Below are positions 2,601-63,385 of a DNA stretch of 64,000 nt, in pieces. Under the pieces are notes generated by a model that saw nothing but the letters and a program-made list of their open reading frames with translations, was not told the origin of the DNA and ran no database searches. The DNA is taken from NCBI GenBank assembly GCA_965223265.1, contig OZ244999.1, positions 288,001 to 352,000 on the forward strand, read 5' to 3'. Position numbers and translations under genes: made by a program. Source of the DNA: Planctomycetota bacterium (GTDB taxonomy: Bacteria > Planctomycetota > UBA8108 > SXIK01). Numbering within the stretch: the first letter of the stretch is position 1; each line of letters starts with the position of its first letter.

Positions 2601-3065
2601 ATGCGCATCTTCGTCAGTTACACCCGCGAGCACCGTGAGGCGGCCCGCGCGTTGACGCGCGATTTGGAGGCTGTTGGCCATGCTGTGTGGATGGATGACG
2701 CGCTCCAAGGCGGACAGACGTGGTGGGAGCAGATCCTCGAAGAAATCCGCCGCTGCGATTTCTTGGTGCTCGTCCTCACGACTGAGTCTCTCGACTCGAC
2801 CGCCTGCGATCGGGAAATGAACTATGCCGCCGCCGTGGGGAAACCGATCCTGCCGGTCTTGGCTGCCGACGGTGTGTCGATCCGTCTTCTGCCTTCTCTC
2901 CTCGCCCAGGTTCAACATGTCGACTACCGAGAGCGAGACAAAGCTGCGGCGCTGAGGGCAGCTGGGGCCACATGGCCAGGAACTGCCGCTCGGCGCCGTT
3001 TCACGGACTCCGCGTTGGACCGCGGCACCGCCATCGGTTTTTGTCCCGCCAGGTCGTCACCGTAG
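2601..3065 (+). CDS. Stand-alone TIR domain protein, possibly C-terminally truncated
   Basis: MRIFVSYTR..VWMD..LQGGQTWWEQILEEIRRCDFLVLVLT..SLDSTACDRE; sequence loses protein-like character after VDYRERDKAAALR. Confidence 0.8.
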   Translation: MRIFVSYTREHREAARALTRDLEAVGHAVWMDDALQGGQTWWEQILEEIRRCDFLVLVLTTESLDSTACDREMNYAAAVGKPILPVLAADGVSIRLLPSLLAQVQHVDYRERDKAAALRAAGATWPGTAARRRFTDSALDRGTAIGFCPARSSP

Positions 3066-9168: not shown

Positions 9169-10614
9169 TTAGAGTCCACGGAGAAGTATGTAGACCATGT
9201 ATTGGTCATGTATGTAGGTGCGTCGACTGAACTTTTCGTCGTGTAACTTTCTGAACGCAGCTTTGATTTCGTCCCAAACTTCTTCTTGATCATCTGATGA
9301 GGTGTAAGAGAGAAGAGGAGCCATGTAGATATCATTCCCATAGCCCTTCGCCGCTTCCACGTACTGATCTGTATCGTCGTAGCGAACGGGCTCGTACGTC
9401 AATTTGGCTTCGAGGATTTTAAAGTTGTCACGAGCATGGCCAACGATCATGGGCAGAGTCTGGAGTCCGATGGGGTTTTCGAGGAAACTCTGCCACAAAT
9501 TGACGGCGTCCCCTCCGGACTTCAGGGCAATTCTTTCGCGAAGAACCTGCCTGTAGGCGCTCAAAAAATCCCGGCCCGTTCCGGCAGCAGCTATCGATGC
9601 AGCGAGCGTTCCACCGGGGAGCAATACCTCTCTGCATGCTTGGAATGCCCGGCCGATCACGGTCGAATCGAGAAGCCAATGGAACACGTTGTTGGCCAAG
9701 ATCAGACTGACACGTCCTCCCGCGGACACCCGGTTTTGAAGGGCATCTGGAGCCATCTCGCGCAAATCTGCCTCGAACACGTCTGAGTAGGTTTCACTCG
9801 CTGCCGACGTCAAGCTCGCAATCATGTTCGGGGCGTTGTCGAAGCCGAGCTTCGTGTGAGCTTCGCGTATCCAATCACATCGATGTTCCTCCACGGCGTA
9901 TTGAGCTACTTTGCCGACCAAGCCAGTTCCGCAACCGATGTCCAGCCACGAGTCGTGGCTGCTCGGGATATCTTCCCGGTCCACCGCTGTCTTGATCATT
10001 CGGAAGAGTTCGACGGCATTGCGTCGTTGCATCGAATTCTGAGCATCTAACGTCGCAGCATATCGATCAGCATTTCGTTCGAAATTCAACTTGACGACGT
10101 CAGGCAAGTCTTGGGGCCCCTTGACATTCACATGCTCTGTCAGTCGCTGATTGACGATCGGGTGGTGCCTGCCGTGTTCGTTGCTCATCGCAATCGATCC
10201 CTGAGGCGCGAGACTTGCGAACTGATCTTTGAGCTCGCGGCGAACGTCGACGACATTGCGAACGTCAATGTGATTGATTGTCGCGAGATGCTTCGGCACT
10301 TCGCCTTCTCTGATGATGGCAAGAATCTTCGCTTCTTTCGTTCCGCGTTCGATGAAATGCTGGACAATCCATTGGTACTCCGCGTGGCAAGCACCTTGTT
10401 GAGCGTCGAGACTCTCCTGGTAGCTTTTCGTTATCAAGAGAATCACATAATCGTTGTCTTGGATTTCTTTCAACACCCAGTCGGTCCAAATCGCCGTCTT
10501 CGGGATGTCTTTATCGGTGCGAACTTGGATGCCATAGCCATCTTGGAGAGTGGGAATGATCAGATCATCGATGAGTGATCGATCCTCTCGTGCGTAAGAA
10601 ACGAATGCTCGCAT
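9169..10614 (-). CDS. TIR domain fused to class I SAM-dependent methyltransferase
   Basis: N-terminal MRAFVSYAREDR..NDYVILLITKSY..ACHAEY; C-terminal WLDIGCGTG, GFDNAPNMI, ILANNVFHWL, VLLPGGTL. Confidence 0.88.
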   Translation of the reverse strand: MRAFVSYAREDRSLIDDLIIPTLQDGYGIQVRTDKDIPKTAIWTDWVLKEIQDNDYVILLITKSYQESLDAQQGACHAEYQWIVQHFIERGTKEAKILAIIREGEVPKHLATINHIDVRNVVDVRRELKDQFASLAPQGSIAMSNEHGRHHPIVNQRLTEHVNVKGPQDLPDVVKLNFERNADRYAATLDAQNSMQRRNAVELFRMIKTAVDREDIPSSHDSWLDIGCGTGLVGKVAQYAVEEHRCDWIREAHTKLGFDNAPNMIASLTSAASETYSDVFEADLREMAPDALQNRVSAGGRVSLILANNVFHWLLDSTVIGRAFQACREVLLPGGTLAASIAAAGTGRDFLSAYRQVLRERIALKSGGDAVNLWQSFLENPIGLQTLPMIVGHARDNFKILEAKLTYEPVRYDDTDQYVEAAKGYGNDIYMAPLLSYTSSDDQEEVWDEIKAAFRKLHDEKFSRRTYIHDQYMVYILLRGL

Positions 10615-46146: not shown

Positions 46147-46448
46147 GCTTCGCGGACGGATCCGAGCAGCCTCGAAGAGCAGCGCCGCCCCCGTTCCCTG
46201 ACACGACGGCCCGCATGGTTCGATCGGTCTCGTCAGGCGACGAAAGTGAGCAACGCGGAGGAATTCTGTTCGCGATTTGTCCGATATCTTTACGAATCTG
46301 TTGAGCCATCAATAACATTCATACGGGCGGCGTGAGAATCAGCTCCTGGCTAACCAGAGCATGCCAGTCGACGCCCGACGTTTGGCACGCGGCTGGCCGC
46401 CCGTGGACACTTCCTCTCGAAGGTTCTCTAAGGTTGGAGAGTCCTACC

Positions 46449-47993
46449 GTGACCGCGCACACGAAGGTGTTTCTCTCATACAGTAGCGCAGATGCAGAGC
46501 TCGCCCAGCGACTAGCCAAGGACTTGAAGTCCGCCGCCATCGACGTCTGGATTGATCAATGGGAGCTCGAGGTTGGCGAGAAATTTGCCCATAGAATCGA
46601 GAGCGGCGTAGATGCAGCTAGTTTCGTGATCGTCCTACTGACGAAAGCGAGCGTAACTTCCGAGTGGGTCGCCCGCGAGTGGCGCCGCAAGGCTGACGGC
46701 GAGGCTGGCACCAAGAGAGTTCAGGTCGTCCCGGTGCGTGGCGAGGAGTGCGAGATTCCCGATTTTCTGGCTCAGCGCAGCTATGTGAACCTAGCCGGCG
46801 GAAGTTACCCTCTGGGATTCCGGCAGTTGCTGGAGATCCTGCGTCACCATGCAGAAAGCGACGCCATCGAGGTGCCCCGAAACACGATCTTGAAGCAGGA
46901 AGAGTACGCTGGTCAGTGGCTTCCTGTCGTGACCCCGATCACGTTGGAGGTGAGCAGCGACCTGATCCCGCTCTTCGATCAGGATCGCCGCTTTGTGGAC
47001 GAGCTGGCACCGAGAATGCGAGATGCTTTGCGAGCCGAGCTCGGCTTTCCGCTCCCCGGCATCCGCGTGCGAGGCAACGAGACCGACATGCCACCCAGCC
47101 ATGCGCTGCTCATGATTGAAGAAATACCTGAGATCATGTTCCAGGTGGGCCGGGACGAGATGTCGGTCGATGGGTCGGTTGAGAGCCTCGCGGAGCTCGG
47201 AATTACGGCGGAGCCGCGCCTGATAGCTGAGTTGGGCATCCAAGCGAGCATTGCTCCGGTCGACCGCGTTCGAGCCGAGTCGGCGGGCATGGCCACGTGG
47301 GATGCTGCCGAGTACCTATGCCGTGCGTTACAGTTCGAGCTCCGGCGCTGGGCTAGCCTGTTCCTCGACGTGGACGTCACGCGAAAGCTGGTGGACGTGG
47401 TCGCGCGCTCGGCTCCCGAGCTGGTCGCCGAAGCTATTCCGAAGGCGGTGTCCTGGTTCGAGCTCACAGAAGTTCTGATTCTCCTCGTAGAAGAAGACGT
47501 CTACATCAGAGACATGGCTTCGATCCTCGAGGCGCTCTCGCACTGGGACTCTGACCTGCGCGATCCCGTCCTGATGGCGGAGAGGGCGAGGCAAGCGTTG
47601 AGCGCGCAAATCACCGCTCGGCTCCTCCAAGGTCGAGAGTCATTGCCAGTCCTTTTAGTCGATCGCGAGATCGAAGGACTCATGTGCAGTGCAATCCAAC
47701 CGACTCCCGTAGGGTCGTACCTTTCACTCGAGCCGCAGCTCTTAAACGACATCACGGCTGCTGTGCGTAGGGAAGTGAACTCGCTTGGAGCTGAAGCGGC
47801 CGAGGTGACGATCCTGACGTCGGCCTGCGAGATCAGGCGGCATCTCCGAAAGTGCGTGGAGCTTGAGTTCCCTTCACTCCAGGTGGTGTCGCGTCAGGAT
47901 CTCGAGCCCGAAGCACCGATCAAGCCGATCGCTCAGATCAGCCTGAACGTCGCGCGCACTCGCGTCGAAAACGGTGGAGGAACATCGACATGA
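46449..47993 (+). CDS. TIR domain fused to SctV/FlhA (FHIPEP) cytoplasmic domain, copy A
   Basis: GGAG RBS then GTG 46449; KVFLSYS..VWIDQWELEVGE..SEWVAREW; then PITLEVSSDLIP..ELGFPLPGIRVR..ELTEVLILLVEEDVYIRDM..MAERARQAL..IRRHLRK..VVSRQDL. Confidence 0.9.
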   Translation: MTAHTKVFLSYSSADAELAQRLAKDLKSAAIDVWIDQWELEVGEKFAHRIESGVDAASFVIVLLTKASVTSEWVAREWRRKADGEAGTKRVQVVPVRGEECEIPDFLAQRSYVNLAGGSYPLGFRQLLEILRHHAESDAIEVPRNTILKQEEYAGQWLPVVTPITLEVSSDLIPLFDQDRRFVDELAPRMRDALRAELGFPLPGIRVRGNETDMPPSHALLMIEEIPEIMFQVGRDEMSVDGSVESLAELGITAEPRLIAELGIQASIAPVDRVRAESAGMATWDAAEYLCRALQFELRRWASLFLDVDVTRKLVDVVARSAPELVAEAIPKAVSWFELTEVLILLVEEDVYIRDMASILEALSHWDSDLRDPVLMAERARQALSAQITARLLQGRESLPVLLVDREIEGLMCSAIQPTPVGSYLSLEPQLLNDITAAVRREVNSLGAEAAEVTILTSACEIRRHLRKCVELEFPSLQVVSRQDLEPEAPIKPIAQISLNVARTRVENGGGTST

Positions 47994-49585
47994 CTTCGAA
48001 AGTTTCCACAGACGCGGTCTGTTTGTTGATGTCCTTCAGTAGTGAGTACGTCGACCTCGCCCGGCGGCTCAAGGGTGATCTGAGCACGGCAAACCTCCGC
48101 GTGCAGCTCAACCAGTGGGACGGTGGAGGTCGTATGCCCGCCGTTCAGTCTGGTGAACATTGTGTCGACGACGTGAATTTCGTACTGCCCCTGCTGACGC
48201 CTGCGCCGCTCGTCGTGCCTTCTGAGGAGGCCGTAAGCTGGGTCGGTGACGAGTGGAGGCGAGCGATCTACGATCACGCTGACGCTCGAAGCATCCCAAT
48301 ACTCGCTGTCCGGGGGGAGCGCTGCGCTGTTCCCGACTTCCTGAAAAACCGAAGCTTCGCCGATCTCTGCAGGCGCGGCTACACCCTCGAGCTTCGGCGG
48401 TTGGTCGAGACGATTCGCAATCGATCTCAAGACACGAGAATCGTGCTGCCGGACCGTGAGCCGGAGGTCGACGACTCCCGATCAACGGTGGCATCGACGA
48501 CTCCGATCGTACTCGAGTTGAGCGACGAGCTCATGCCGCTCTTCGCAGGTACCAACGGGAAGAGCCGTTTTGTCGAGGAGACTGTTCCTTGCATGCGCGA
48601 CGGGCTGTTCTACGAGCTTGGAGTTCTGTTCCCAGGGGTGCACCTGCGGGTCGCACCAGACTTGTCCGGCTCGTCCTCACGAATCGTGATCAACGACGTT
48701 TCCGAAAAAAGGCTGGAGCTTCGGCTCGAAGATGTGATGGTCAACGACAACGTCGAAGCATTGGCGAAGCGGGGGTTCGTCGCCGAGCCAGCTGTGAACC
48801 CAGCCAACGGACTTTCGTGCGGCTGGATCTCGACTCGCCACGCTGCAGCGGCTGAAGAATGTGGCCTGGCGACATGGGACGTCCATGCGTACGTGATTCT
48901 TGAGCTAACCGCGGTCCTTCGGCGCATCGCAGCGGACTTCGTCGATGCCGACGTGACGCAGGTTTTGTTGGATAGACTCAAGCTCGCCTTTCCGCTGCTC
49001 GTTGAAGAGACCGTTCCAAAGACTGTCTCTCTCTTCATCCTCACCGACGTTCTCAGGAGATTGGTTGCCGAGCGCCTCCCGATTCGCGATTTGCGCCGAA
49101 TCCTGATGGTCGTCGCAAAATGGGGACGCTGCGAAGAGGATCCACTCATGTTGACCGAGTACGTGCGCAGCGGTCTCAAGCGTCAGATCACCCATCGCGT
49201 GAGCCGTGGACAGAACAACCTCACCGTGTTCCTCCTCGATCCCGAGATGGAGACCGCGATCCAGAACGCGACGCGGCAGGCAGCAACTGGCGACTATGTC
49301 GAGCTCGAACCGGACAGTCTCAGACAGATCGTGGCTGCCATCGAGAAGCCCCTGAGTGCCCTCGCTGACGGAAGCTTTCAGCTCCCGTCAATCCTTACCA
49401 CCGCGGAGGTTCGCCCGATTGTACGCCGACTCGTCGCTCCCTGGATGCCGGCGATTGACGTTATCTCGTATCAAGAGATCAGCCAGACTCGCCAAATCGG
49501 AATTCAACCAGTTGGCCGAATTTCTCTCGATGGCTTCGAGCCGCGGCAGGGAATCTGGCCGTATCCAACGCCGTCTCATCAATGA
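47990..49585 (+). CDS. Divergent TIR domain fused to SctV/FlhA (FHIPEP) cytoplasmic domain, copy B
   Basis: ATGA overlap; LMSFSS..SWVGDEW..VPDFLKNRSFADL; then PIVLELSDEL..MRDGLFYELGVLFPGV..NPANG..DVLRRLVAERLPIRDLRRIL..LTEYVRSGL..LLDPEME..VISYQEI..QPVGRI. Confidence 0.9.
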   Translation: MTSKVSTDAVCLLMSFSSEYVDLARRLKGDLSTANLRVQLNQWDGGGRMPAVQSGEHCVDDVNFVLPLLTPAPLVVPSEEAVSWVGDEWRRAIYDHADARSIPILAVRGERCAVPDFLKNRSFADLCRRGYTLELRRLVETIRNRSQDTRIVLPDREPEVDDSRSTVASTTPIVLELSDELMPLFAGTNGKSRFVEETVPCMRDGLFYELGVLFPGVHLRVAPDLSGSSSRIVINDVSEKRLELRLEDVMVNDNVEALAKRGFVAEPAVNPANGLSCGWISTRHAAAAEECGLATWDVHAYVILELTAVLRRIAADFVDADVTQVLLDRLKLAFPLLVEETVPKTVSLFILTDVLRRLVAERLPIRDLRRILMVVAKWGRCEEDPLMLTEYVRSGLKRQITHRVSRGQNNLTVFLLDPEMETAIQNATRQAATGDYVELEPDSLRQIVAAIEKPLSALADGSFQLPSILTTAEVRPIVRRLVAPWMPAIDVISYQEISQTRQIGIQPVGRISLDGFEPRQGIWPYPTPSHQ

Positions 49586-49934: not shown

Positions 49935-51686
49935 ATGAGCGAGCGACCTCTCCTCCGCGTTTTCGTCTCCTCAACCGCCGAGGATTTGAAGGATCACCGT
50001 GCCAGGGTTTTTGAGGCGCTGCTCTTGTTGGGGGATCTACCAGTCGCCATGGAGGCGTTCGGCGCCGACCCGGGTGATCCCGTCGAGGTGTGCCGCGAGC
50101 GCGTGCGGGAGTGTGACATCCTCATCGTCCTGGTCGGCCGTCGCTACGGATGGGTTCCACGTGCGGATGAAGGCGGCGACGACCGGCGAAGCATCACGTG
50201 GATTGAAGTCGACACCGCGCTGGAAGCCGGGAAGCCCGTGTTCGCCTTTCTCGAAGTCGCGGATCCTTCAGCGGCGGAACCTGCAGAAGACGGCCCCGCG
50301 ATCGGGCGACTGCGGGAATTCCGGGAATTTCTAGAGCGGGACGCTCGCCTGACCCGCGACGTGTTCACGACTCCGGACAATCTCGGCATGAAGGTAGCCA
50401 CGAGCGTTTCCGGAGCGATCCGACCGTCGCGTGGCCGCCTTCGTGTGTGGATCGCCGCGACGGTTGTCTTGCTTGTTGGCCTCGTTTGCGAGTGGCTGCA
50501 GGTCTTCAGCGGCTCGATCGACCCTGCAACGGACGATTTGGTCATGGGCTACGCGGAACGACTCGATCCGACTTCAGTCGACGATCGCATCGCGATCGCA
50601 ATGATTGATCAGCACACCATTGATGCATTCGGCGTCGAGTTCGGACCGAGCTGGCGCGCCTTCCATGCAGAGTTCGTTTCTCGACTCTCACGTGCGAGGG
50701 CACACGTCATCGCCTTTGATATCTTCTTTCCTTCGCCGACGGAACATGACCTCTCGTTCCGCGACGCGATCAAGTCGGCTCGGAGTATAGGTTGCCGCGT
50801 GGTCGTCGGCGTTGCTGAGTGGGGCGAGCAGCAACCGCAACTCTCCGAGATTCTCCGCAGCGAAGTGAGTGGATTCGGATCGCTCTGCACGACGGAGAGG
50901 AAAGGGGCGGAGAGGTTCGTGTCCGGAGCTCTCGAATCCCGCGGTCGATCGATCGTTCCAGCCTTTGCTGTCAGCGTGTTTGCCGCGGCAGGCGAGTACG
51001 ACGACTTCGCTATTATGGAGATCGGTGACCGCCCACCGAGGATGAAGGTCTCTCTCGGCGGAGAGGAGCTTTGGTGGCGTGTTTTCGAGACGATCGAAGT
51101 CACAGAGCGAGATAAGGAATCGCCTACGCGTGGAGGGGTCGAAGCCATTGGCTGCCCGCTCGAGTCGGTTGGCGACAAAGTCGCGCTCCTCGCATTCGAG
51201 CCGACCGCTCGGGAGGCGATCGGCTCACGAATCTTAAAGTACGAGGATCTCATTTCGGCGTCGGAGTCTGATCTCGCCCGCATGATCAGTGGCAAGATTG
51301 TCTTCGTCGGCGTCGACTCCGCTGTGGAGGAAAGGCGCGTTACCTATGCTCTTTCGAAAGAGTCTCGTCTGGGGGTAAGGATTCATGCTGATGCGTTGAA
51401 TACGCTTCTAGCGAAACGCCTCCTCCACCCGGCTGGGCACGATGTGCAGATCGTCCTCCTAGTTGTGAATAGTTTCATCGGCGCGTGGCTCGTCAAGGTG
51501 CGCCTTGCATGGCTGAGGCTGCTTGGGATCTTGGGTATGACCGGTGGCGTCGTCGCCGTCGCGCTCTTTCTTCATGTCGGCTATGCAATCGTGCTTCGAC
51601 CTGTGTATCCGCTCTTTGCCCTTTACGCGGCGGCCACTGCCACTTGGTTTTCCCGGCCGCGCTGGAGGGGCATTGGAAACCGGTAG
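49935..51686 (+). CDS. DUF4062 (TIR-like) + TM + CHASE2 + 3 TM sensor protein
   Basis: RVFVSST.EDL..R..PVAME.FGA..CDILIVLVGRRYG..SITWIE; CHASE2 RIAIAMID..W.RAFHA..VIAFDIFF..GKIVFVG..GVRIHADALNTL followed by three TMs. Confidence 0.9.
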   Translation: MSERPLLRVFVSSTAEDLKDHRARVFEALLLLGDLPVAMEAFGADPGDPVEVCRERVRECDILIVLVGRRYGWVPRADEGGDDRRSITWIEVDTALEAGKPVFAFLEVADPSAAEPAEDGPAIGRLREFREFLERDARLTRDVFTTPDNLGMKVATSVSGAIRPSRGRLRVWIAATVVLLVGLVCEWLQVFSGSIDPATDDLVMGYAERLDPTSVDDRIAIAMIDQHTIDAFGVEFGPSWRAFHAEFVSRLSRARAHVIAFDIFFPSPTEHDLSFRDAIKSARSIGCRVVVGVAEWGEQQPQLSEILRSEVSGFGSLCTTERKGAERFVSGALESRGRSIVPAFAVSVFAAAGEYDDFAIMEIGDRPPRMKVSLGGEELWWRVFETIEVTERDKESPTRGGVEAIGCPLESVGDKVALLAFEPTAREAIGSRILKYEDLISASESDLARMISGKIVFVGVDSAVEERRVTYALSKESRLGVRIHADALNTLLAKRLLHPAGHDVQIVLLVVNSFIGAWLVKVRLAWLRLLGILGMTGGVVAVALFLHVGYAIVLRPVYPLFALYAAATATWFSRPRWRGIGNR

Positions 51687-51696
51687 AGGAAACTCC

Positions 51697-53346
51697 ATGC
51701 AATTCGCACGGCAAGCCATCTTTGGACTCCTGTTGTTCACGGGCGCATGCGCCCCGAGAGTCGACTCGATTGTGGTCCGCGGTAAGCTGGCCGAGGCAGG
51801 TGAGTCAGTGGATGTCCAAGTCGTTCGCGACAAGGAGCTTGTCGACGTAGAGCCCGGGATGAAGCTCAAAGAGGCCGATGTGCTGACAACAGGCTCTGAC
51901 CACACGGTGAAAGTCACAACGCGGGAAGCGGATTTTACTGTGTACCCGAGATCTACCATGACGCTCGGCGACAAGGAGGTGATCACTGACATCGCCACGA
52001 TTGCGATCAGTGCTCGCAAGGCGGTACGCGCACGGAGCTCGTCCACGGTATCTGGGACTCGCGGCACCGAATATTTTTTCGAGGAACTCGTGCTCGGCGA
52101 TCAGAGAACGGTCAAGGTCACCGTCATTTCCGGCGTTGTCTCCGTCAGCTCTCCGACGAACGCCTTTTCGGAGTTGACGCTGAGGCCTCGCGAGCAGGTC
52201 GTCGTCGCCGCGAAGCCGGAGCCAGTGCGGACGCTCGGCGCGAAAGAGTTCAATGACTACGTCAACAAGCAAAATGATGTTCAAAGGGTGATCGGGAAAG
52301 GCGCGAAGTTTCTCATGCCCGGCGTGGTTGGTCAGCCCGAGCCCGACGCGAACGGCCTTCTCTCTCAATGGGGGTTCGCAATCAATCGTGTCCCGACGAT
52401 CGAGGGTAATGAGGATCAGATGGGGAAGGTTGTTCGTCAGGACCCCGACGCTGGCACGAGGGTCAACCCAACCGGCGTCACCGTTCGGTTGCACGTCCGT
52501 GTGCGTGCTGTTGACGTGCCGAGCGTAATCGGGCTGAGCTTGTCCGAGGCTCGTAGAGTACTGCACGAGGCCGAACTGGTAGGCGAGCGCGCCGGGGAGT
52601 CGATCTCTGGCCAGTTCGCGGCGGGTGAGGTAAATAGCCAAGAGCCATCCGCATCGGCTCAGGTCCCCGAAAGTACCACCGTGCGGTTGATCGTTGAAGC
52701 CGAGTCAGTCGTCGTGCCTGATGTTCGCGGCATCGATCTCGACAGTGCCAGGCGAACGGTAGCTGAAGCAAGGCTCGAATTGAACGTCGGCGGGGAGAGC
52801 TTCCGCGCGGGCATCGAGCGTCCCGAGGTCGAGCGTCAGAAGCCAGCCGCCGGAGCGCGTGTGAGTCCTGGCACCGTGGTGTCTGTCGACGTCCTCAACC
52901 CCGGGTTCGCCGTTCCTCGACTGATCGATCTGAGCCGCCAAGCCGCCGAGCGTGCCTTAGCGGAAAACGGACTCCGGCTGGGACGTGTCACTGAAGAGCA
53001 CAGCACGCGTTACAAGGCGGGACGTGTCCTACACCAGGCGTACGGCGCGGATACTCTCTTGGGAAGCGGCGCGTCCGTCGACATCGTCGTCTCGAAGGGA
53101 CCGGAGCAGTGCAGCGTGCCTCAGCTCGCCCCATATCGGCGCAGCGATGGCCGCTGGCAGTATACCTACCTCCCTGAAGCTCGACAGAAGCTCGCTAGTG
53201 CCGGACTGCAGCTTGTGATTCGTGGTTCGGCTCCCCCTCGCGACAGAGAGGGCAAGTATTACGTCCAGGAGCAGGACATATCGCCGAATAGTCGAGTCGA
53301 CTGCGGCAGTCCTGTTGGTGTGCGCCTTCTGAGAGTCGTGGAGTGA
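51697..53346 (+). CDS. Lipoprotein with FecR-like domain and five PASTA repeats
   Basis: GAGGA RBS; lipobox FTGAC; GMKLKEADVLTTG..GTRGTEY..VTVISGVVSV; repeats MPGVVGQ, VPSVIGL, VPDVRGI, VPRLIDL, VPQL with Q.P.AG motifs. Confidence 0.88.
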   Translation: MQFARQAIFGLLLFTGACAPRVDSIVVRGKLAEAGESVDVQVVRDKELVDVEPGMKLKEADVLTTGSDHTVKVTTREADFTVYPRSTMTLGDKEVITDIATIAISARKAVRARSSSTVSGTRGTEYFFEELVLGDQRTVKVTVISGVVSVSSPTNAFSELTLRPREQVVVAAKPEPVRTLGAKEFNDYVNKQNDVQRVIGKGAKFLMPGVVGQPEPDANGLLSQWGFAINRVPTIEGNEDQMGKVVRQDPDAGTRVNPTGVTVRLHVRVRAVDVPSVIGLSLSEARRVLHEAELVGERAGESISGQFAAGEVNSQEPSASAQVPESTTVRLIVEAESVVVPDVRGIDLDSARRTVAEARLELNVGGESFRAGIERPEVERQKPAAGARVSPGTVVSVDVLNPGFAVPRLIDLSRQAAERALAENGLRLGRVTEEHSTRYKAGRVLHQAYGADTLLGSGASVDIVVSKGPEQCSVPQLAPYRRSDGRWQYTYLPEARQKLASAGLQLVIRGSAPPRDREGKYYVQEQDISPNSRVDCGSPVGVRLLRVVE

Positions 53347-53945: not shown

Positions 53946-55076
53946 ATGAGTTGGATCGAATCGCTCGAACCAAACGCTCAGCAGCAGCGAAAGTTGCTTG
54001 CACTCGACGGCGGAGGCATCCGAGGAATCATGACGATCGAGATCCTTGCTGGACTCGAGCGCATGCTGCGCGACGAAACCGGCGGTGGAGAGGACTTTGT
54101 CCTCGCCGATTACTTCGACGCCATCGCCGGCACCAGCACAGGCGCGATCATCGCTGCATGTTTATCGCGTGGTATGTCAGTTGAGAGCGTGCGCCGCTTC
54201 TATATCGATAGCGGGCCTGACATGTTTCAAAAGGCCAATCTTTTTCGGCGTTTCCGTTACAAATACGAGGACGACAAGCTTGCCGCGAAGATACGAGACG
54301 TTGTCGGTGCCGACGCGACGCTCGGAGACCCGTCGCTGCGCACCATCCTCATGATGGTCCTGCGGAACGCCACGACGGATTCACCGTGGCCGTTGTCGAA
54401 CAATCCCAAGGCGAAATACAACGACCCTGGTCGCGGCGACTGCAACTTGCAGCTTCCACTTTGGCAGTTGATTCGCGCCAGTACCGCGGCGCCGACGTAT
54501 TTCCCACCTGAAGTGATCGAATTCGACAACGGAAGATATGAGTTCGTCTTCGTCGATGGCGGAATTACACCCTACAACAATCCCGCCTTTCAGCTCTTCC
54601 TCATGTGCACCATTCAGCCGTACCGGCTTCAGTGGCCGACCGGAGAAGACAAAATGCTTTTGGTCTCCGTCGGTACCGGGACGAATCCAGAGGCGAACGC
54701 TGACTTGGCGCCCGGCGATATGAATTTGTTCTACAACGCCGGTTCGATTCCCTCGGCTCTCATGTTCGCAGCGCTCAACGAGCAGGATCTGCTCTGCCGG
54801 GTCTTCGGCAACTGTCTTTCCGGCGAGTCCATCGATCGTGAGGTGGGCGACTTGAGAAATATTCCAGCGCTGGGCGATGAAAAGCTGTTCACCTACATGC
54901 GTTACAACGCGGAGTTGTCTGAGGACGGACTGAAGCGCCTGGATTTGCCCGACGTCAAACCGGACGACGTCGCAAAACTCGATTCCATTCGGCATATCGA
55001 GGACTTGCAGCGGATCGGTACGCGCGTCGCCGAACGCGATCTCGACAAAGCGCACTACGCCGCATTCTTGAGTTGA
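53946..55076 (+). CDS. Patatin-like phospholipase
   Basis: LALDGGGIRG, IAGTSTG, RASTAAPTYFPP, FVDGG..NNP, LVSVGTG; GGAGG RBS. Confidence 0.95.
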   Translation: MSWIESLEPNAQQQRKLLALDGGGIRGIMTIEILAGLERMLRDETGGGEDFVLADYFDAIAGTSTGAIIAACLSRGMSVESVRRFYIDSGPDMFQKANLFRRFRYKYEDDKLAAKIRDVVGADATLGDPSLRTILMMVLRNATTDSPWPLSNNPKAKYNDPGRGDCNLQLPLWQLIRASTAAPTYFPPEVIEFDNGRYEFVFVDGGITPYNNPAFQLFLMCTIQPYRLQWPTGEDKMLLVSVGTGTNPEANADLAPGDMNLFYNAGSIPSALMFAALNEQDLLCRVFGNCLSGESIDREVGDLRNIPALGDEKLFTYMRYNAELSEDGLKRLDLPDVKPDDVAKLDSIRHIEDLQRIGTRVAERDLDKAHYAAFLS

Positions 55077-55157
55077 CGCTGCTTTGTCTCTAAACGGGGC
55101 GTGCAACGAGCTCGTGGGAAACCGCCCCGCTCTCTTACTGATCGAAACGGAGGCGTG

Positions 55158-56468
55158 ATGAACGAACAGGTCAGAGCGATACGCGATCAGCAGCAAGTAG
55201 AGCTTCAGCAGCGCTGGCTCAAGTTTGCCCCGGTGCCGCCGGAGCGTGGAACGAACTCTTATGACGTCTTCATCAGCTACCGGTCTTCGGATCGCGAATG
55301 GGCCATGGCGCTTTACGACGCACTCGAGATGGCGGGCTGGAAGGCGTTTCTGGATCAGTACGAGCTCGTTCCCGGGAGCGACCTGGAAACAGCGCTCACG
55401 GAAGCGCTCGAAGCGAGCTCGTCCGGCGTGATCCTCTGGTCGAGTCGGACGGAGGACTCGGAGTGGTGCAAGCGCGAGCGCAGGGCCATGCGATCGCTGA
55501 AGGACCAGTCGGCGTCGTTTCACTACCTTTTTGCAAAACTCGACACTAAGCCGCTGCCGCGGTTTGCTCAAGCCGATCTCTACACCGACTTCGAGGATAG
55601 CCCGGAGGGACCGCGTGGCGTTCACCTGCTGCAGCTCATGTGTGGGATGCGTGGCGTCAAATTGGCGCCAGAAGCGGTGGCGATGGCGCAGCAGGTCGAT
55701 CAGAACGCAAAGGAGATGTTGGTGGCCATACGAGGTGCGTTCCAAGGGGACAATGCGGACCGCCTCCTTGAGCTCGGCACGTCGGGAGAACCTGGCGTGC
55801 TCGCGTCACCGACACCCATGCTGGAGGCGGCCCAGGGCTTGATCAGCATGGGACGAGTTGATGCCGCACTCGAGGTGCTACAGCACGCGCACGCGTACTT
55901 TCCCAAGTCGATTCGGGTGCGGCAGCTCGAGGGGCTCGCGCTGCGCCGAGCGGAGAAGTATCAGGAAGCCATCGATGTCCTCTCCGAGCTGAAAGCCGCG
56001 GGGCACCAGGATCCTGAGACCATGGGGATCCTGGCGGCGGCTTGGGATGGCCGCTACCGCGAGTCCGGCAAGTTGCTACACCTCCGCAAGTCGCGCGAGC
56101 TGTACCGTACGGCCTTTCAGGCCGACCCGACGGACTATTACACAGGGATCAACGCCGCGTCGAAGTCGCTCTTTCTCAGCGAGGCGGACGAAGCGTCGCG
56201 GCTCGCCGCCGAGGTTCTTCCTTTGGTCGAAACGGCCGTCGACGGCGAAGATTTTTACGCCGGCTGCACGTTGGGTGAGGTCCACCTCTTGCAGAAGAAT
56301 GTGGGATCTGCGGCGGCGCTGTATCAGAAGGTCGTCGACAAGCACTTCGAGCGAGCTGGCGACCTTCGCGGAACGCGACAACAGGCAGCAAGAATCTGCG
56401 CAGCGCACGAGCTAAGTGTGGAGGAGACTGAGAAGGTGTTGACGCCGTTCGCGTTGATCGAAGAGTGA
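55158..56468 (+). CDS. TIR + TPR domain of DUF4071 / MAP3K TRAF-binding type
   Basis: YDVFISYRSSDREWA..FLDQYELVPG..SEWCKRE; DPETMGILAAAW..SRELYRTAF..DYYTGINAAS..FYAGCTLGE. Confidence 0.88.
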   Translation: MNEQVRAIRDQQQVELQQRWLKFAPVPPERGTNSYDVFISYRSSDREWAMALYDALEMAGWKAFLDQYELVPGSDLETALTEALEASSSGVILWSSRTEDSEWCKRERRAMRSLKDQSASFHYLFAKLDTKPLPRFAQADLYTDFEDSPEGPRGVHLLQLMCGMRGVKLAPEAVAMAQQVDQNAKEMLVAIRGAFQGDNADRLLELGTSGEPGVLASPTPMLEAAQGLISMGRVDAALEVLQHAHAYFPKSIRVRQLEGLALRRAEKYQEAIDVLSELKAAGHQDPETMGILAAAWDGRYRESGKLLHLRKSRELYRTAFQADPTDYYTGINAASKSLFLSEADEASRLAAEVLPLVETAVDGEDFYAGCTLGEVHLLQKNVGSAAALYQKVVDKHFERAGDLRGTRQQAARICAAHELSVEETEKVLTPFALIEE

Positions 56469-56622
56469 CGTATGTCGTCGAGCTGTGAGATGGCCAACTC
56501 GTTTGATCCGTCTGTTGTGAGAGAGTCTGCGGCCGAAGTTTCGTGTCGGCGGACGACGACCACCATGCTTCAATCGCTTCAGCCGTGCTTTCAGTGTGCT
56601 GGGTGTCTTCGCGAGTCGTGAT

Positions 56623-58164
56623 ATGAGACAGCGCTATCGGCCTCAGTTCGACCTTGACACGTGGCGCCGGATGCTCGACGCGAGCGACCAAGCCTGGTCA
56701 GCCGTCGTGACGTCTGTGCGCAGGGACTCGGCTTACGCCTTCATTGCAGCTTTTACGGTGTGGCCGGCGATCGACGCGATCCGATCAGGTGACAAAGCCG
56801 CTCTCGCCCTGCTGCGTCGCTTGTTGCCGTCAACCGGTGAACAGCTTGCGTCGCTGCTGGCGGACTGCTCGGACGAGCTCGAGGCCGCTAAACGGCTCGA
56901 TGAGGTTTTGCGCTCACAGCGGTGGCTCTACGACGTGCTGGACCTCTTGATCGAAGAGCTCGGCTCGATGGAGCTCGTCTTGAGGCAGGCGGCAGGCGGC
57001 GAGCGACGTCACGAGTTTTTCATACTCGCGAGCGAGCTGCGCGCACGCCGACGAGGACGAACACCTGCGGACCCGGGTCGTCGCTCGGCGCGAAGAGGGC
57101 GTGCTCGCACTTTCGACGAAGAAGCTCCTTCGGCCGCTCGCGAGGCGCCTCCGGTCTTTCGCGAGGCGTTCACCGACGGCGCGGCAGAAGAGTCTCCAGC
57201 ATCTGAATCGGGAGAGGAGATCGCGGAAACAGAAGCCGCGGTAAGCGAAGCGGGAGCCGGTGAAGCCGCAGCCTCCGAGGGTGCCGATACTGGTGTGATT
57301 CCACCCGCACCACCCGACCCGGTTCTCCTCGGCGCCTCCGCTCCCAGCGCCGTTCAGCCCGGCGATGAGTTCACCGCGCGCTGCGTCGCCTACGTCGAGG
57401 CGCACGAGCCTAAGATCCGCGAGATTCTCACCAGCCTTAGTCCGCGCTCCCCTCAGCACCTCGGTCTGAAGAAGTGTCGCTGGCAGCGTGGGACCCCCGT
57501 TACCGTCATCTGCGAAGGAAGGCACCTGAACGTCGACGAACCCGCGCGTGAGTTCGTTTGGGACGGCGAGTTTGCCTTGGTCGAATTCGACGTCACGGTC
57601 GCGGAGTCTGCGCCTGATGGAACAACGGTCCTCAAGTTCAATGTCGCCGTCGATGGCGTTCGGCTTGCACGACTGCGCGTCGACTTGCAAGTCTCGTCTG
57701 CGAAGCAGTCGAGCGATCCTCAATTTATCGAGGCGCGCCCAGCTGAAACCGCGTTCGCTTCCTACGCCTCCGAAGATCGCCCGCGCGTTCTCGATCGAGT
57801 CTCAGCGGTCAAGATCAGCGCCGGACTCGACGTCTTTCTGGATTGTGTCTCGCTGCGTGTCGGCGAGGAGTGGAAGCCAGCTCTGCTACGTGAGATCGAT
57901 GGCCGCGATCTTTTTCTTCTCTTCTGGAGTAAGAACGCACGTACTTCAGACTGGGTCGAATGGGAGTGGCGAACCGCTCTGGAGAGCAAGGGGCGCGAGG
58001 CGTTCCAGTTCCATCCACTGGACACCCCGGACGACGCGCCGCCGCCCCAGGAGCTGAAGGGACTCCACTTCGGCGACCCGCTTGTGGTGCTGCGGCGTGA
58101 TGCGCAGGAGCGGCGCAAGAAGGCAGGCGGTGATGCGGATTCGAAGGGCTCTGGAGATCGGTGA
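56623..58164 (+). CDS. Helical N-domain + acidic linker + beta-sandwich + C-terminal TIR
   Basis: C-terminal AFASYASEDR..DVFLDCVSLRVGEEW..DLFLLFWS.NA..SDWVEWEW..PPPQEL..LHFGD. Confidence 0.85.
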   Translation: MRQRYRPQFDLDTWRRMLDASDQAWSAVVTSVRRDSAYAFIAAFTVWPAIDAIRSGDKAALALLRRLLPSTGEQLASLLADCSDELEAAKRLDEVLRSQRWLYDVLDLLIEELGSMELVLRQAAGGERRHEFFILASELRARRRGRTPADPGRRSARRGRARTFDEEAPSAAREAPPVFREAFTDGAAEESPASESGEEIAETEAAVSEAGAGEAAASEGADTGVIPPAPPDPVLLGASAPSAVQPGDEFTARCVAYVEAHEPKIREILTSLSPRSPQHLGLKKCRWQRGTPVTVICEGRHLNVDEPAREFVWDGEFALVEFDVTVAESAPDGTTVLKFNVAVDGVRLARLRVDLQVSSAKQSSDPQFIEARPAETAFASYASEDRPRVLDRVSAVKISAGLDVFLDCVSLRVGEEWKPALLREIDGRDLFLLFWSKNARTSDWVEWEWRTALESKGREAFQFHPLDTPDDAPPPQELKGLHFGDPLVVLRRDAQERRKKAGGDADSKGSGDR

Positions 58165-60079: not shown

Positions 60080-63000
60080 ATGTGCACCATGGCAGGTCGA
60101 CGCTATCACACGTTCCTCTCCCACAACGGCGACGACAAGCCAGCGGTCGAAGAGTTGGCGCACCGGTTGCGCGGCGAAGGCATCGAGCCGTGGCTCGACA
60201 CGTGGAACTTGATTCCTGGCGATCCGTGGCAGGAGGCGATCGAAGAGGCGATCGCGGAGTGCGACACGTGCGCGGTGTTCGTCGGCCCCGGTGGGATCGG
60301 TCCCTGGCAGCACGAGGAGATGCGGGACGCCATCGATCGCTGCGTCGCCGACGCCGGTCGTCGCTTTCGCGTCATCCCGGTGCTGCTGCCGGGCGCCGAG
60401 CGGGGCGATCGAAGCTTGCTACCGCGGTTCCTCGTGCGCGCGACGTGGGTGGAGTTCCGGCGCAGCCTTGACGACGAAGATGCGTTGCATCGACTCAAGT
60501 GCGGCATCCGCGGCATCGCGCCGGGGCCGGGTCGCAACGGAGCGATTGACGTTGGTGTGTGCCCGTATCAAGGCCTCAAGGCGTTCGATCGCGATCAAGC
60601 TCGGTTTTTCTTCGGTCGCGAGGGGCTGACGGGCTGGCTCGTCGACGCCTTGCGGCAGCGGCCGGGAGCTGTCGAGCAGAGTCGCTTTCTCGCCATTCTC
60701 GGGCCCTCGGGAAGCGGCAAATCCTCACTCGCGCGCGCGGGTCTCCTGCCTGCAATTGAGCGCGGCGACATCGACTCTAGTAGTGAGTGGCCGATCGTCG
60801 TGCTGAGGCCAGGCCCGCGTCCTGTCGAAAGCCTCGCGGTCGCGCTGGCGGCAAACCCGGCGTTTCGCGACCACCTGCCGGCGGTGGACGAAGTGGAAGC
60901 GAAGCTCGATGGTGACGAGCGTGCGCTCCACCTCAGCCTCCGCGTCGCGCTTCACGAGGAACCCGAAGACCGGCGTGTGGTCCTTCTCGTCGATCAGTTT
61001 GAAGAGGTGTTCACGCTGTGCGAGAAGGAGGAGCTCCGCCGCGCGTTCATCGCGAACTTGCTCTACGCCTCGAGCGTCACTGGCGGCCGGACGATCGTCG
61101 TCCTCACCATGCGGACGGACTTTTACAGCCGCTGCGCCGCGTACACCGACCTCGCCGCGGCATTGTCGGCTCACCAAGAGCTCGTCGGTCCGATGAATGA
61201 CGAGGAGCTGCGCAATGCGATCGAGCAGCCAGCGTTCTTGACCGGCTGCGAGCTCGAGCCGGGGCTCACCGATGCGCTCGTAAACGATGTGGAAGGTCAA
61301 GCTGGTGCGCTCCCGCTTCTTGAGCACACACTCCTCGAGCTCTGGGAGGGGCGCGTGGGGCGCAAGATGTCGTTCGATCGTTACCGCGAGATCGGCGGTA
61401 TCAAAGGCGCGCTCGAACGCAAAGCCGAGGAGATCTTTGCGACCTTCGATCCCGAGGAACAGGACGCTTGTCGGCGCCTTTTCCTGCGTCTGACGCAGCC
61501 GGGCGAAGGTACAGAGGACACGAAGCGCAAGGTGCCGCGCCGAGAACTCTTGCCCGCCCGGGGTGACCCCGCACGGCTCGACAGCTTGCTCCTTCGACTC
61601 GCCGCTGCGGACTCGCGCCTCATCACGACGGAAGGCGAAGCCGAGGCGGGATATGTGGAGGTCGCACACGAAGCGCTGATTCGCGAGTGGTCGCGACTGC
61701 GGCAGTGGATCGAGGCGGAGCGCGGGGACTTGAAGATCCACCGCCAGCTCACCGCCGCGGCTGACGAGTGGCGAAAGAACGGTCGTGACCGCAGCGACCT
61801 CTATCGTGGCCGGCGCCTCGAGGAACTTGAAGACTGGGCGCAGGGCCATGCGAAGGATGAAAGCGAACTGGAGCGAGAGTTTCGTCAAGCGAGCGTGCGC
61901 AAGCGAGCCGGTGTGACCTGGGCGAAGAGAAGCACCGTGATCTTACTCGCCGCGGCGCTCGTCGGCGTGACGCTTTGGGCGGTCTCGTCGTATCGAGCGC
62001 GCGCGGAAGAAAAGAGACGGGGCGCCGACCTAGGCCTCTTGGTGCATCTTGAAAACGAGGTGCGCGATCTGCGGCGCTGGCCGCCGCCGTCTGTATTGCG
62101 GGCTGTGGCGCATCGCGCCGGCGGCCGAGTCGCGGAGGTGCTCGATGATCCGTTCTTTGCTGCCAAGCAGTGGCGTCGTTCGGCGGCGCTCCTCGTCGAT
62201 CAGGCTGCAGAATACACGCGCGCGTTCGACGACTTGGTGAAGCGTAAGCAGTTTCAAGTGGAGCGAAACGGCGTGAAGACGCACCAGTTTGAGTCGGCCG
62301 AAGACCAGGCCGAGTACGAACGACTGCGCGAGCTCGTTCTCGGCATCGCGGCGCTGCAGATCGATCCGCCGGGTCGCTTCACTCTCGGCAAGGTCCCGCC
62401 GCGCTTCGAGCGCCTGCGCTGGGCCGCGGTAGTGCTCAAGGAGTTCGTCGCCAGCGAAAGGCTTTGGAGGAATGCCATCGAGGTGATCCGAACGAGTCCT
62501 AAGTACAGAGGGCTCGAGATACCGCCTCAGGTAGGGATGATTCCGATGCGCTCTCCGAATGCAGAGAGCGGTCTGTACGAGTTTCGTCAGTTGCTCCCAC
62601 CGCACAGTTTCTCGAGGAGCGATAAGACGCAAGTGGACGAGGCCGTCGAAGTTCCACCGCCACTGCCAGTTTCTGGCACAGGGAACGACGACCTGACAGG
62701 CGCCCAACAGCAGATACGAAACGACGAAATCGTCTTGGTGTTGTTGCCGGGGGGCGAGTTCTCCATGGGGAGCCCGGAGAGCGAAGACGACCGAGAGACT
62801 AACGAGAAGCGTCACGAGGTTACCCTGAGCCCGTTCTTCATCGCGAAGCATGAGGTGACGCAGGAGCAGTGGTTTCGCGTGCACGGGACCGAGTCTTCGT
62901 TCCACAAAGGCCCACACCTCCCGGTCGATACCGTCTCGTGGGATGATTGCCAGGAGTTCTGTGCGCGAGCGGTTCTTCAACTCCCATCAGAGGCGCAGTG

Positions 63001-63385
63001 GGAATATGCCTGTCGTGCCGGTACTCTCACACGTTACTCGTCGGGAGAGAGTGAAGCCCGCTTAGCCAAAGTCGCTCGATACAAGGAAAACTCGGGCGGT
63101 GAACCGCACGGGGTCGGCGGCAAGCTAGCGAACCGGTTCGGCCTTCACGACATGCATGGAAATGTCTGGGAGTGGTGCGAGGACGGCTGGGATGCAGACT
63201 TTTACTCGAAGCCAGAGGCATCGGAGAAAGATCCTTTGTGCCGCCCGGGCTCCGTGTACCGGGTCCTTCGCGGCGGCGGCTGGTTCAGCGACGCCAGGCG
63301 CTGCCGCTCGTCGTTCCGCAGCGCCTTGCGCGCGTTGGTTCGCAACAACACCGTCGGTTTTCGCCCCGCCAGGTCGTTACGCTAA
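60080..63385 (+). CDS. TIR + nSTAND1-type NTPase + TM + FGE-sulfatase (SUMF1 / CLec-fold) domain
   Basis: YHTFLSHN..PWQHEEM; CPYQGL..FFGRE..GPSGSGKSSLARAG..VDQFEEVFT..LPLL..EVAHEALIREW; TM TVILLAAALVGVTLWAV; PGGEFSMGS..LPSEAQWEYACRAG..DMHGNVWEWC..RVLRGGGW..VGFR. Confidence 0.93.
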   Translation: MCTMAGRRYHTFLSHNGDDKPAVEELAHRLRGEGIEPWLDTWNLIPGDPWQEAIEEAIAECDTCAVFVGPGGIGPWQHEEMRDAIDRCVADAGRRFRVIPVLLPGAERGDRSLLPRFLVRATWVEFRRSLDDEDALHRLKCGIRGIAPGPGRNGAIDVGVCPYQGLKAFDRDQARFFFGREGLTGWLVDALRQRPGAVEQSRFLAILGPSGSGKSSLARAGLLPAIERGDIDSSSEWPIVVLRPGPRPVESLAVALAANPAFRDHLPAVDEVEAKLDGDERALHLSLRVALHEEPEDRRVVLLVDQFEEVFTLCEKEELRRAFIANLLYASSVTGGRTIVVLTMRTDFYSRCAAYTDLAAALSAHQELVGPMNDEELRNAIEQPAFLTGCELEPGLTDALVNDVEGQAGALPLLEHTLLELWEGRVGRKMSFDRYREIGGIKGALERKAEEIFATFDPEEQDACRRLFLRLTQPGEGTEDTKRKVPRRELLPARGDPARLDSLLLRLAAADSRLITTEGEAEAGYVEVAHEALIREWSRLRQWIEAERGDLKIHRQLTAAADEWRKNGRDRSDLYRGRRLEELEDWAQGHAKDESELEREFRQASVRKRAGVTWAKRSTVILLAAALVGVTLWAVSSYRARAEEKRRGADLGLLVHLENEVRDLRRWPPPSVLRAVAHRAGGRVAEVLDDPFFAAKQWRRSAALLVDQAAEYTRAFDDLVKRKQFQVERNGVKTHQFESAEDQAEYERLRELVLGIAALQIDPPGRFTLGKVPPRFERLRWAAVVLKEFVASERLWRNAIEVIRTSPKYRGLEIPPQVGMIPMRSPNAESGLYEFRQLLPPHSFSRSDKTQVDEAVEVPPPLPVSGTGNDDLTGAQQQIRNDEIVLVLLPGGEFSMGSPESEDDRETNEKRHEVTLSPFFIAKHEVTQEQWFRVHGTESSFHKGPHLPVDTVSWDDCQEFCARAVLQLPSEAQWEYACRAGTLTRYSSGESEARLAKVARYKENSGGEPHGVGGKLANRFGLHDMHGNVWEWCEDGWDADFYSKPEASEKDPLCRPGSVYRVLRGGGWFSDARRCRSSFRSALRALVRNNTVGFRPARSLR

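Follow-up and report, generated by a model that had tools for sequence, protein, structure and literature searches.

The closest described systems pair a CHASE2 receptor in the inner membrane with a separate envelope protein. In Campylobacterota, clusters encode a FecR outer-membrane protein together with a CHASE2 cyclase (PMC9239204), and in Sinorhizobium meliloti the outer-membrane protein NsrA acts upstream of the CHASE2 cyclases CyaD1, CyaD2 and CyaK (PMC13001267). The "BiofilmReg" operon of Burkholderia encodes a response regulator, a LysM-FecR periplasmic protein and a CHASE2 histidine kinase (PMC5192318). Caspase-CHASE2 fusions are also in print, without a partner (PMC8195603, PMC2853523); the CHASE2 passage of PMC8195603 concerns the caspase fusion, not TIR. 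Here, we describe a gene pair in a 64-kb stretch of contig OZ244999.1 from a Planctomycetota bacterium (the whole analyzed stretch is hereafter called the window). Gene A encodes a CHASE2 receptor with an N-terminal DUF4062 domain, and gene B encodes a likely lipoprotein in which a FecR-type domain is combined with five PASTA repeats. We consider it moderately probable that A and B work together as an envelope sensor made of two proteins and fitted with a swappable head; its output would be suicidal or immune-type through oligomerization-driven cleavage of nicotinamide adenine dinucleotide (NAD+).

The effector domain of A is known from another set of systems. DUF4062, now renamed NIR, is a TIR-like NAD+-cleaving (NADase) domain whose products are ADP-ribose and nicotinamide (three 2026 preprints), which bears out the initial annotation of the locus in calling DUF4062 TIR-like. 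A catalytic glutamate is required in these enzymes (KpSwz E97, PsAvs2 E108, Vulcan E98, Vesta E103 and Eva01 E87), KpSwz needs an activating assembly for NADase activity, and the specific activity of the DUF4062 domain of TEP1 climbs with concentration (2026 preprints). The defense systems Swarozyc (KpSwz), PsAvs2, Vulcan, Vesta and Evangelion share the effector domain of A, with the catalytic glutamate conserved, and on activation link NAD+ depletion to a sensor or an auxiliary component. They differ in being described with cytoplasmic sensors (phage portal, STAND, replication intermediates). Neither "CHASE2" nor "transmembrane" occurs in the main text of the three preprints, whose figures and supplements may list more architectures.

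The initial annotation had also noted that CHASE2 genes often adjoin FecR-domain genes, and this is indeed in print (PMC5192318, PMC9239204). The S. meliloti and Campylobacterota systems resemble A and B in having a CHASE2 inner-membrane receptor with a separate envelope protein, but their output is a C-terminal adenylate cyclase; NsrA, moreover, is described as an outer-membrane beta-barrel rather than a PASTA lipoprotein, and its cue is a plant protein. The BiofilmReg system resembles the pair in that the FecR partner of the CHASE2 receptor bears a peptidoglycan-binding module, but this module is LysM rather than PASTA, and the output is a kinase and response regulator (gene regulation) rather than an NADase (PMC5192318).

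Two further classes of proteins show likenesses to the pair. PASTA Ser/Thr kinases of the PknB/PrkC/StkP type also couple extracytoplasmic PASTA repeats to a cytoplasmic output, but in our pair the repeats are on a separate, probable lipoprotein in a diderm, and the output, which is no kinase, belongs to the other protein. Animal Toll-like receptors follow the same logic: a pattern sensor outside the cell, a single pass through the membrane and, on the inside, a TIR-type domain that assembly switches on. SARM1 is a TIR NADase. A and B differ from these in having no leucine-rich-repeat ectodomain and in a sensor that is unrelated by descent and split over two proteins. The earlier label "Toll-like" thus holds as an analogy of logic only, the ectodomain not being related by descent. 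The novelty of the pair lies in its DUF4062 head and its PASTA-bearing putative co-sensor, set on a receptor-plus-partner family that is conserved but undescribed. This family joins two known kinds of system, CHASE2/FecR sensing and TIR-type NADase effectors.

Domain layout of genes A and B

The features of the pair are listed by window coordinates and strand, with the basis of each assignment in parentheses.

49935..51686, plus: gene A, DUF4062-TM-CHASE2-3TM receptor (TM, transmembrane segment), 583 amino acids (aa) (open reading frame [ORF] and start site, Pfam, full-length relatives)
49956..50219, plus: DUF4062 domain (TIR-like NADase family), aa 8-95, cytoplasmic (Pfam, E 1.3e-20)
50205..50207, plus: GAA codon of E91, the putative catalytic glutamate of S-I-T-W-I-E (alignments below)
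50445..50504, plus: first TM of A, about aa 171-190 (hydropathy, window of 19)
50505..51443, plus: extracytoplasmic CHASE2 domain of A, aa 191-503 (Pfam, AlphaFold2 model)
51447..51650, plus: three C-terminal TMs of A, about aa 505-572, then the tail (hydropathy, sequence end)
51687..51696, plus: 10-nt spacer between A and B; B's Shine-Dalgarno sequence and A's stop codon overlap (sequence)
51697..53346, plus: gene B (549 aa), probable lipoprotein that carries five PASTA repeats after a FecR-type domain (ORF, Pfam, relatives)
51697..51750, plus: signal peptide and lipobox-like T-G-A-C18 of B (sequence; Cys in aligned partners)
51775..52293, plus: FecR-type beta-rich domain of B, aa 27-199 (hhalign, partner profile, AlphaFold2 and Foldseek)
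52315..53097, plus: PASTA repeats 1-4 of B, aa 207-467 (Pfam; four matches in the whole-genome PASTA search)
53110..53343, plus: C-terminal PASTA-like repeat of B with Cys pair C472/C536 (Pfam, sequence, alignment with the L037 partner)

Gene A starts with an ATG that has GAGG 5 nt upstream and ends with TAG. Pfam assigned its N-terminal domain to DUF4062 (PF13271, 73.7 bits against a gathering cut-off of 24.7), not to TIR_2, which is a related fold but a different family, and assigned aa 182-516 to CHASE2 (PF05226, E 1.3e-17, 64.7 bits against a cut-off of 26.3). The scan found no domain besides these two and none after CHASE2. By hydropathy, the C-terminal TMs lie at aa 505-523, 527-547 and about 550-572, leaving 11 residues after the last of them. 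With one TM before CHASE2, three after it and this short tail, DUF4062 is therefore the sole cytoplasmic domain of A. The cyclase, kinase or GGDEF domain that forms the classical C-terminal output of CHASE2 receptors is absent, in agreement with the initial annotation, which had the protein ending after its three TMs with no cyclase or kinase.

The AlphaFold2 model of the CHASE2 domain had a predicted local distance difference test (pLDDT) score of 87.4 and a predicted template modeling score of 0.90. In alignments with relatives, the domain keeps a conserved Cys pair, C318/C407, which fits a periplasmic location, and conserved charged residues (R241, H244, D262, D272, H484 and D486), which could form a ligand or contact site. 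Foldseek returned no PDB match to the model at E ≤ 0.001, and the best hits of a wide VIA-align search (Z 5.4; solute-binding protein 5er3, Mur-ligase C-domain 3mvn, subtilisins) were in the noise range.

The DUF4062 domain of A retains the SITxxE motif reported by the initial annotation, as S86-I-T-W-I-E91. It aligned with the solved structure of KpSwz (10wc) with a phmmer E value of 2.2e-8, and a profile of 39 DUF4062 domains matched the same chain at E 1.3e-11. In both alignments, the residue facing E91 of A is the alanine at position 84 of the chain. The 10wc structure was solved with the E97A mutant (2026 preprint), and its chain numbering is offset by 13 (chain R5 is R18, chain D58 is D71), which makes position 84 residue 97. 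Ala84 is thus the mutated residue, and E91 corresponds to the catalytic glutamate of KpSwz. Of the 111 nearest DUF4062 rows in the alignment, 107 have Glu in the E91 column, and this column aligns with a Glu column that is at least 90% conserved in the TIR_2-CHASE2 relatives described below. By these alignments, A carries an intact predicted catalytic glutamate. W89 was considered as the counterpart of the KpSwz glutamate and rejected, since the solved chain carries E97A.

Gene B follows A after 10 nt (51687-51696), the distance given in the initial annotation, and its Shine-Dalgarno sequence, AGAGGA, overlaps the TAG stop of A. Gaps of 349 nt upstream of A and 600 nt downstream of B flank the pair; with the 10-nt spacing, A and B therefore look like one bicistronic unit. 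Across 49.4-54.1 kb, no promoter or terminator signal stood out from shuffled sequences. The N-terminus of B, MQFARQAIFGLLLFTGAC, has a positive n-region and a hydrophobic core. All 19 partner proteins in the alignment have Cys at the position of C18, and relatives of B mostly carry the canonical lipobox L-S-G-C or L-x-G-C. From its sequence, B is likely a lipoprotein.

The FecR assignment of B came from several directions. Pfam FecR (PF04773) did not match aa 1-268 of B even at E ≤ 10. However, a full-length homolog (P0043, 30% identity, 95% coverage) has a Pfam FecR match as well as five PASTA repeats, and hhalign aligned a profile of B and three relatives with nine Pfam-FecR-positive CHASE2 neighbors at a probability of 99.8 (E 7.6e-28) over aa 27-199 of B. 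A hidden Markov model (HMM) of the partner family, described below, matched B at E 1.5e-16. The AlphaFold2 model of aa 17-205 had a pLDDT of 90.3, and at E ≤ 0.001 Foldseek matched it in the PDB exclusively to FecR-type anti-sigma periplasmic domains: PupR (6ovk_R, E 2.6e-5, TMq 0.55) and BDI_1681, the latter in three chains (4m0n and 4m0h; 4m0n at E 7.9e-5), with the next match at E 0.04. Sequence and model together support the view that the N-terminal part of B is homologous to, and folded like, FecR-type periplasmic domains. Because B opens with a signal peptide and lipobox Cys and lacks an anti-sigma domain or TM helix, it is not a FecR anti-sigma factor. A word-index search with aa 17-205 retrieved B itself and nothing else.

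Pfam PASTA (PF03793) matched B in five stretches (E 1e-47), and the C-terminal Cys-bearing repeat aligns with the Cys-bearing C-terminal repeats of the partner at locus L037. B is the single PASTA protein found in the 9.18-Mb genome, all PASTA matches falling inside it. Its repeats match PASTA Ser/Thr kinases in the PDB and, in PADLOC-DB 2.0.0, the PD-T4-6 kinase models, the latter through the repeats alone. The genome carries two Omp85 genes, so the host is a diderm. The earlier description of the partner as a FecR-like lipoprotein with five PASTA repeats accordingly stands for PASTA by Pfam and for FecR by hhalign, P0043 and the structural model, while Pfam FecR itself gave no support.

Relatives of the receptor and conservation of the partner gene

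A phmmer search with A against 1.84 billion representative proteins returned 10,929 matches, of which the best 150 were listed and are the basis of the counts that follow. Sixteen proteins of 554-613 aa align nearly end to end with A at 26-32% identity, the aligned stretches spanning query aa 8-570. All 16 consist of TIR_2 and CHASE2 with the topology of A. Among the 29 matches scanned with Pfam, 19 were TIR_2-CHASE2, five CHAT-CHASE2, three CHASE2 only, one Pkinase-CHASE2 and one nSTAND1-CHASE2, and any extra domain was N-terminal in every case. The nearest ESM Atlas cluster to A (80 members) likewise combines CHASE2 with TIR_2. A word-index search with A matched its halves only separately and yielded no full-length relative; the matches were CHAT-CHASE2 proteins and, for aa 1-160, DUF4062-STAND-TPR proteins about 50% identical to A.

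TIR_2-CHASE2 proteins with a FecR lipoprotein are thus like A and B in length, topology, end-to-end alignment and an adjacent partner. They differ in the head, TIR_2 instead of DUF4062, and in that most of their partners lack PASTA. These receptors are annotated merely as "CHASE2 domain-containing protein", for example in Accumulibacter spp. and Azotobacter chroococcum, and a literature search on CHASE2 with TIR found no description of the family. CHAT (caspase-like)-CHASE2 proteins have the same CHASE2 chassis with an N-terminal death-type effector, and some have a FecR-PASTA partner (L053), but they are about 820-850 aa long and their effector is a protease rather than an NADase.

Since the nearest full-length relatives carry an N-terminal effector and no C-terminal output, A is not a copy that lost its cyclase, an outcome that the initial annotation had named as one that would tell against its proposal. 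Related to this, A could be a decayed CHASE2 receptor whose N-terminal domain is an accidental, functionless fusion; as a singleton architecture on a long branch, it invites the suggestion. That reading is the least probable of those we weighed, given the architecture of the relatives, an intact ORF that keeps the catalytic glutamate and, in CHASE2, both the Cys pair and the conserved charged residues, and signs of tight translational coupling between A and B.

The two halves of A differ in their closeness to relatives. The DUF4062 domain shares 50-60% identity with STAND-linked DUF4062 domains, whereas identity between the CHASE2 domain and its relatives is about 30%, and 41% for one fragment (P0095); a metagenome scan with P0095 gave no match. 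This gap fits an effector-head swap in A. Other CHASE2 proteins in the phylum of A are Pkinase-CHASE2 or CHASE2-cyclase.

Conservation of the pair was assessed at 32 related loci, 27 of which have a partner-type FecR gene adjoining the receptor gene. The initial annotation had held that absence of the pair elsewhere would refute it, and this is not what we found. In species-representative genomes there were 15 loci: 14 TIR_2-CHASE2 loci, from Accumulibacter, Dechloromonas, Azonexus, and Burkholderiales and Gammaproteobacteria metagenome-assembled genomes (MAGs), and one CHAT-CHASE2 locus from a Thermoanaerobaculia MAG. Pfam placed a FecR ORF beside or near the receptor in 12 of the 15, and the partner HMM placed a partner directly adjacent in 14. 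This HMM was built from nine of the partners, which match by construction; the eight other matches, B included, are independent. Metagenomes yielded 17 further loci, 13 with a partner; the four without are L052, L060 and L062, on contigs of 1.5-2.9 kb, and L063. Two of the 27 loci, L034 (G403) and L039 (G402), come from unpublished genomes.

In five of these genomes, the partner profile gave one to three matches per genome, and the top match was always the neighbor of the receptor (E 1e-39 to 1e-121). The order of the two genes varies: the partner precedes the receptor at the Rhodocyclales loci, follows it in L034, L036, L039, L041 and the window, and is convergent with it in L037. In the window itself, B adjoins A and is of the partner type by both the partner HMM and hhalign.

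Several relatives are worth recording in their own right. L063 (131-3322) encodes a 1064-aa protein with two tandem CHASE2 domains followed by a cyclase domain. In L040 (4992-6768, Accumulibacter MAG), the TIR_2-CHASE2 gene is split into two overlapping frames, which may reflect a frameshift or an assembly error. L004 (1429-3297) and L009 (1489-3417), from the phylum of the window, encode an N-terminal TIR_2 followed by FGE-sulfatase or Glucodextran_B domains; their match to the receptor profile runs past TIR to profile position ~186-189, and they may be further TIR-headed membrane receptors.

PASTA add-on, cue and proposed mechanism

PASTA repeats occur in 4 of the 21 partner ORFs scanned with Pfam at the related loci:

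L037: partner FecR + 7 PASTA, receptor TIR_2-CHASE2
L049: partner FecR + 4 PASTA, receptor CHAT-CHASE2
L053: partner FecR + 5 PASTA, receptor CHAT-CHASE2
L056: partner FecR + 2 PASTA, receptor fragment

Both the L037 and the L053 partner align with B starting at the lipobox Cys. Identity is 29% over 472 aa for L037 (E 4e-41) and 31% over 534 aa for L053 (E 7e-55), the latter alignment extending into the C-terminal repeat of B. By these alignments, the FecR-PASTA lipoprotein is a family serving receptors with three different heads. The conserved FecR-PASTA neighbors that the initial annotation had proposed to look for do recur, at the four loci above, but most partners (17 of 21) lack PASTA, which is therefore an add-on to a constant FecR core. 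L049, with a CHAT head and a PASTA partner, and L051, with a TIR_2 head and a plain FecR partner, have sister CHASE2 domains (support 98/97); effector head and PASTA add-on thus both change between close relatives. At the level of sequence, these comparisons show that the effector head swaps among DUF4062, TIR_2 and CHAT on one sensor chassis.

We propose the following mechanism for A and B. B would be lipid-anchored outside the cytoplasmic membrane, with its anchor, in the simplest geometry, in the outer leaflet of the inner membrane. The FecR domain directly after the anchor would serve as a constant adaptor, docking on the extracytoplasmic CHASE2 domain of A, and the five PASTA repeats would project toward the peptidoglycan and add a wall-derived cue, such as muropeptides, lipid II or uncross-linked strands. 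An altered contact between B and CHASE2 would rearrange or cluster A in the membrane. Clustering could bring the DUF4062 domains together and lead to NAD+ hydrolysis, as in KpSwz and TEP1, and loss of NAD+ would result in growth arrest or cell death. The biological role of the pair would then be defense or programmed death.

The part of this proposal that concerns the wall has an alternative. The same receptor and co-sensor could answer to a cue other than peptidoglycan, the FecR/CHASE2 core sensing a protein or other envelope signal and PASTA acting as a rigid spacer or anchor. FecR, not PASTA, is the conserved part of the partners; the CHASE2 ligand has been described as unknown (PMC5192318), and the S. 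meliloti CHASE2 cyclases respond to a plant protein through NsrA (PMC13001267). On the other hand, PASTA partners occur at no fewer than four further loci and with three kinds of effector head, CHASE2 kinases have a LysM-FecR partner with another wall-binding module (PMC5192318), and B is the one PASTA protein found in its genome. A TIR-TM-PASTA x3 receptor also stands beside the TIR_2-CHASE2 gene in L039, a statement that, like that on the patatin neighbor below, comes from this single locus of unpublished genome G402. We regard a non-peptidoglycan cue as a doubtful alternative, though one to be taken seriously. The L039 protein (1214-2710) consists of TIR_2, one TM, three PASTA repeats and a Cys-rich tail; it has a single-chain receptor layout and is encoded between a patatin gene and the TIR_2-CHASE2 gene.

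A number of observations weigh against a wall-sensing, NAD+-cleaving pair. Not all PASTA domains are known to bind peptidoglycan, and with PASTA in so few partners, a wall cue cannot be the general signal of the family. The lipobox of B has an atypical Thr at position -3 instead of Leu, Val or Ile. No second DUF4062-CHASE2 protein was among the best 150 of the 10,929 matches; the architecture search that the initial annotation had called for thus turned up TIR_2- and CHAT-headed CHASE2 relatives but no second copy. Across 400 other genomes of the phylum there was no full-length match to A, which was found in its own genome only. The CHASE2 domain of A is on a very long branch (2.5 changes per column) and unplaced in the tree. 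The loci are also of restricted independence: a single Rhodocyclales clade accounts for 17 of the 27 rows of that tree, and three metagenome rows duplicate genome rows, which leaves about 10 deep lineages. L033 has a receptor without a partner. The Rhodocyclales relatives have housekeeping genes around them (UvrD, MscS, ABC transporter) rather than defense islands, and A matches none of the families of known anti-phage defense systems in PADLOC-DB 2.0.0. Finally, the S. meliloti CHASE2 pathway answers to a protein signal (PMC13001267).

The TIR and DUF4062 systems of the cited papers are described with cytoplasmic triggers. If the proposed sensor pair operates as outlined, receptors of this kind would instead let signals from outside the cytoplasm lead to NAD+ depletion or proteolytic death. 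One sensor chassis with three swappable heads is a hallmark of conflict systems. CHASE2 would gain a testable partner and a read-out, NAD+ loss being easily measured, and the TIR_2 version is present in the cultivable Azotobacter chroococcum, where it is directly testable. More tentatively, and with less confidence than we place in the pair itself, the family may be a bacterial counterpart of Toll-like receptor logic, in which CHASE2 receptors read the wall through a lipid-anchored FecR co-receptor, here with PASTA repeats, and fire interchangeable cytoplasmic death domains (an NADase of the TIR or DUF4062 type, or a caspase-like protease). Bacteria would then have a suicide or immune pathway triggered at the envelope, before or without cytoplasmic sensing of an invader.

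Genomic neighborhood

The window holds nine TIR-superfamily genes, A included, on both sides of a locus for an extracellular contractile injection system (eCIS). Among their architectures are TIR-methyltransferase, TIR-TPR-S, X-TIR and TIR-nSTAND1-FGE-sulfatase.

1243-2391, minus; 2601-3065, plus; 9169-10614, minus: TIR-superfamily genes
13501-43297, minus: eCIS locus (sheath, gp19-like tube, Pvc16_N, AAA ATPase, Baseplate_J)
46332-49585 (two genes); 49935-51686 (A); 55101-56468; 56596-58164; 60080-63385: further TIR-superfamily genes
53946..55076, plus: patatin-like phospholipase, a possible third component (Pfam and PADLOC phospholipase effector models)

The TIR-superfamily genes, the patatin gene and a STAND NTPase are context that we count toward a sensor pair with an immune-type output. 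The TIR genes and the patatin also bear on the possibility that DUF4062 acts without killing by NAD+ depletion, making a nucleotide signal or nucleating hetero-assemblies with neighboring TIR proteins or the patatin, in the manner of a Toll-like receptor adaptor. TIR domains can make signaling nucleotides (2026 preprint), a DUF4062-patatin fusion exists (P0037), and the window patatin is 61% identical to one encoded two genes from the TIR_2-CHASE2 gene of L039 (Burkholderiales MAG, G402). We judge this to be unlikely, as the DUF4062 enzymes assayed gave ADP-ribose and nicotinamide and depleted NAD+ (2026 preprints), most relatives have no TIR or patatin neighbor, and the patatin family is also found alone among housekeeping genes. 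One such case is a homolog with 53% identity to the window patatin, located on another contig of the L037 genome (Gammaproteobacteria MAG). At these identities, the patatin is far more conserved than the adjoining receptor pair.

Two neighbors were considered as further components. The patatin as an obligatory third component is unsupported, given the setting of the 53% homolog. An astacin as a conserved component is also unsupported; the window astacin is weakly similar to those of L034 and L039 and has no signal peptide.

The eCIS locus (13.5-43.3 kb) lies 6.6 kb upstream of the pair on the opposite strand, with TIR genes flanking both sides, and the pair could in principle regulate it or belong to its accessory set rather than act as an autonomous sensor-effector. 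However, no eCIS genes stand beside the pair at the 32 related loci (flanks of 4-5 kb), and A has no DNA-binding or kinase output, so we consider such a role very improbable. The eCIS locus itself encodes two eCIS_core proteins, one with a terminal Ntox4 toxin domain. Rfam and tRNA scans of the window gave no matches.

Immediately upstream of A lie two tandem plus-strand genes (46332-47993 and 47990-49585) that share 4 nt. In each protein, a TIR domain at the N-terminus is joined to the C-terminal, cytoplasmic half of FlhA. A narrow literature search on an anti-phage TIR-FlhA fusion found no matching description. The two proteins cover positions 320-655 of the FHIPEP profile and are 34% identical to each other, and one full-length FlhA is encoded elsewhere in the genome.

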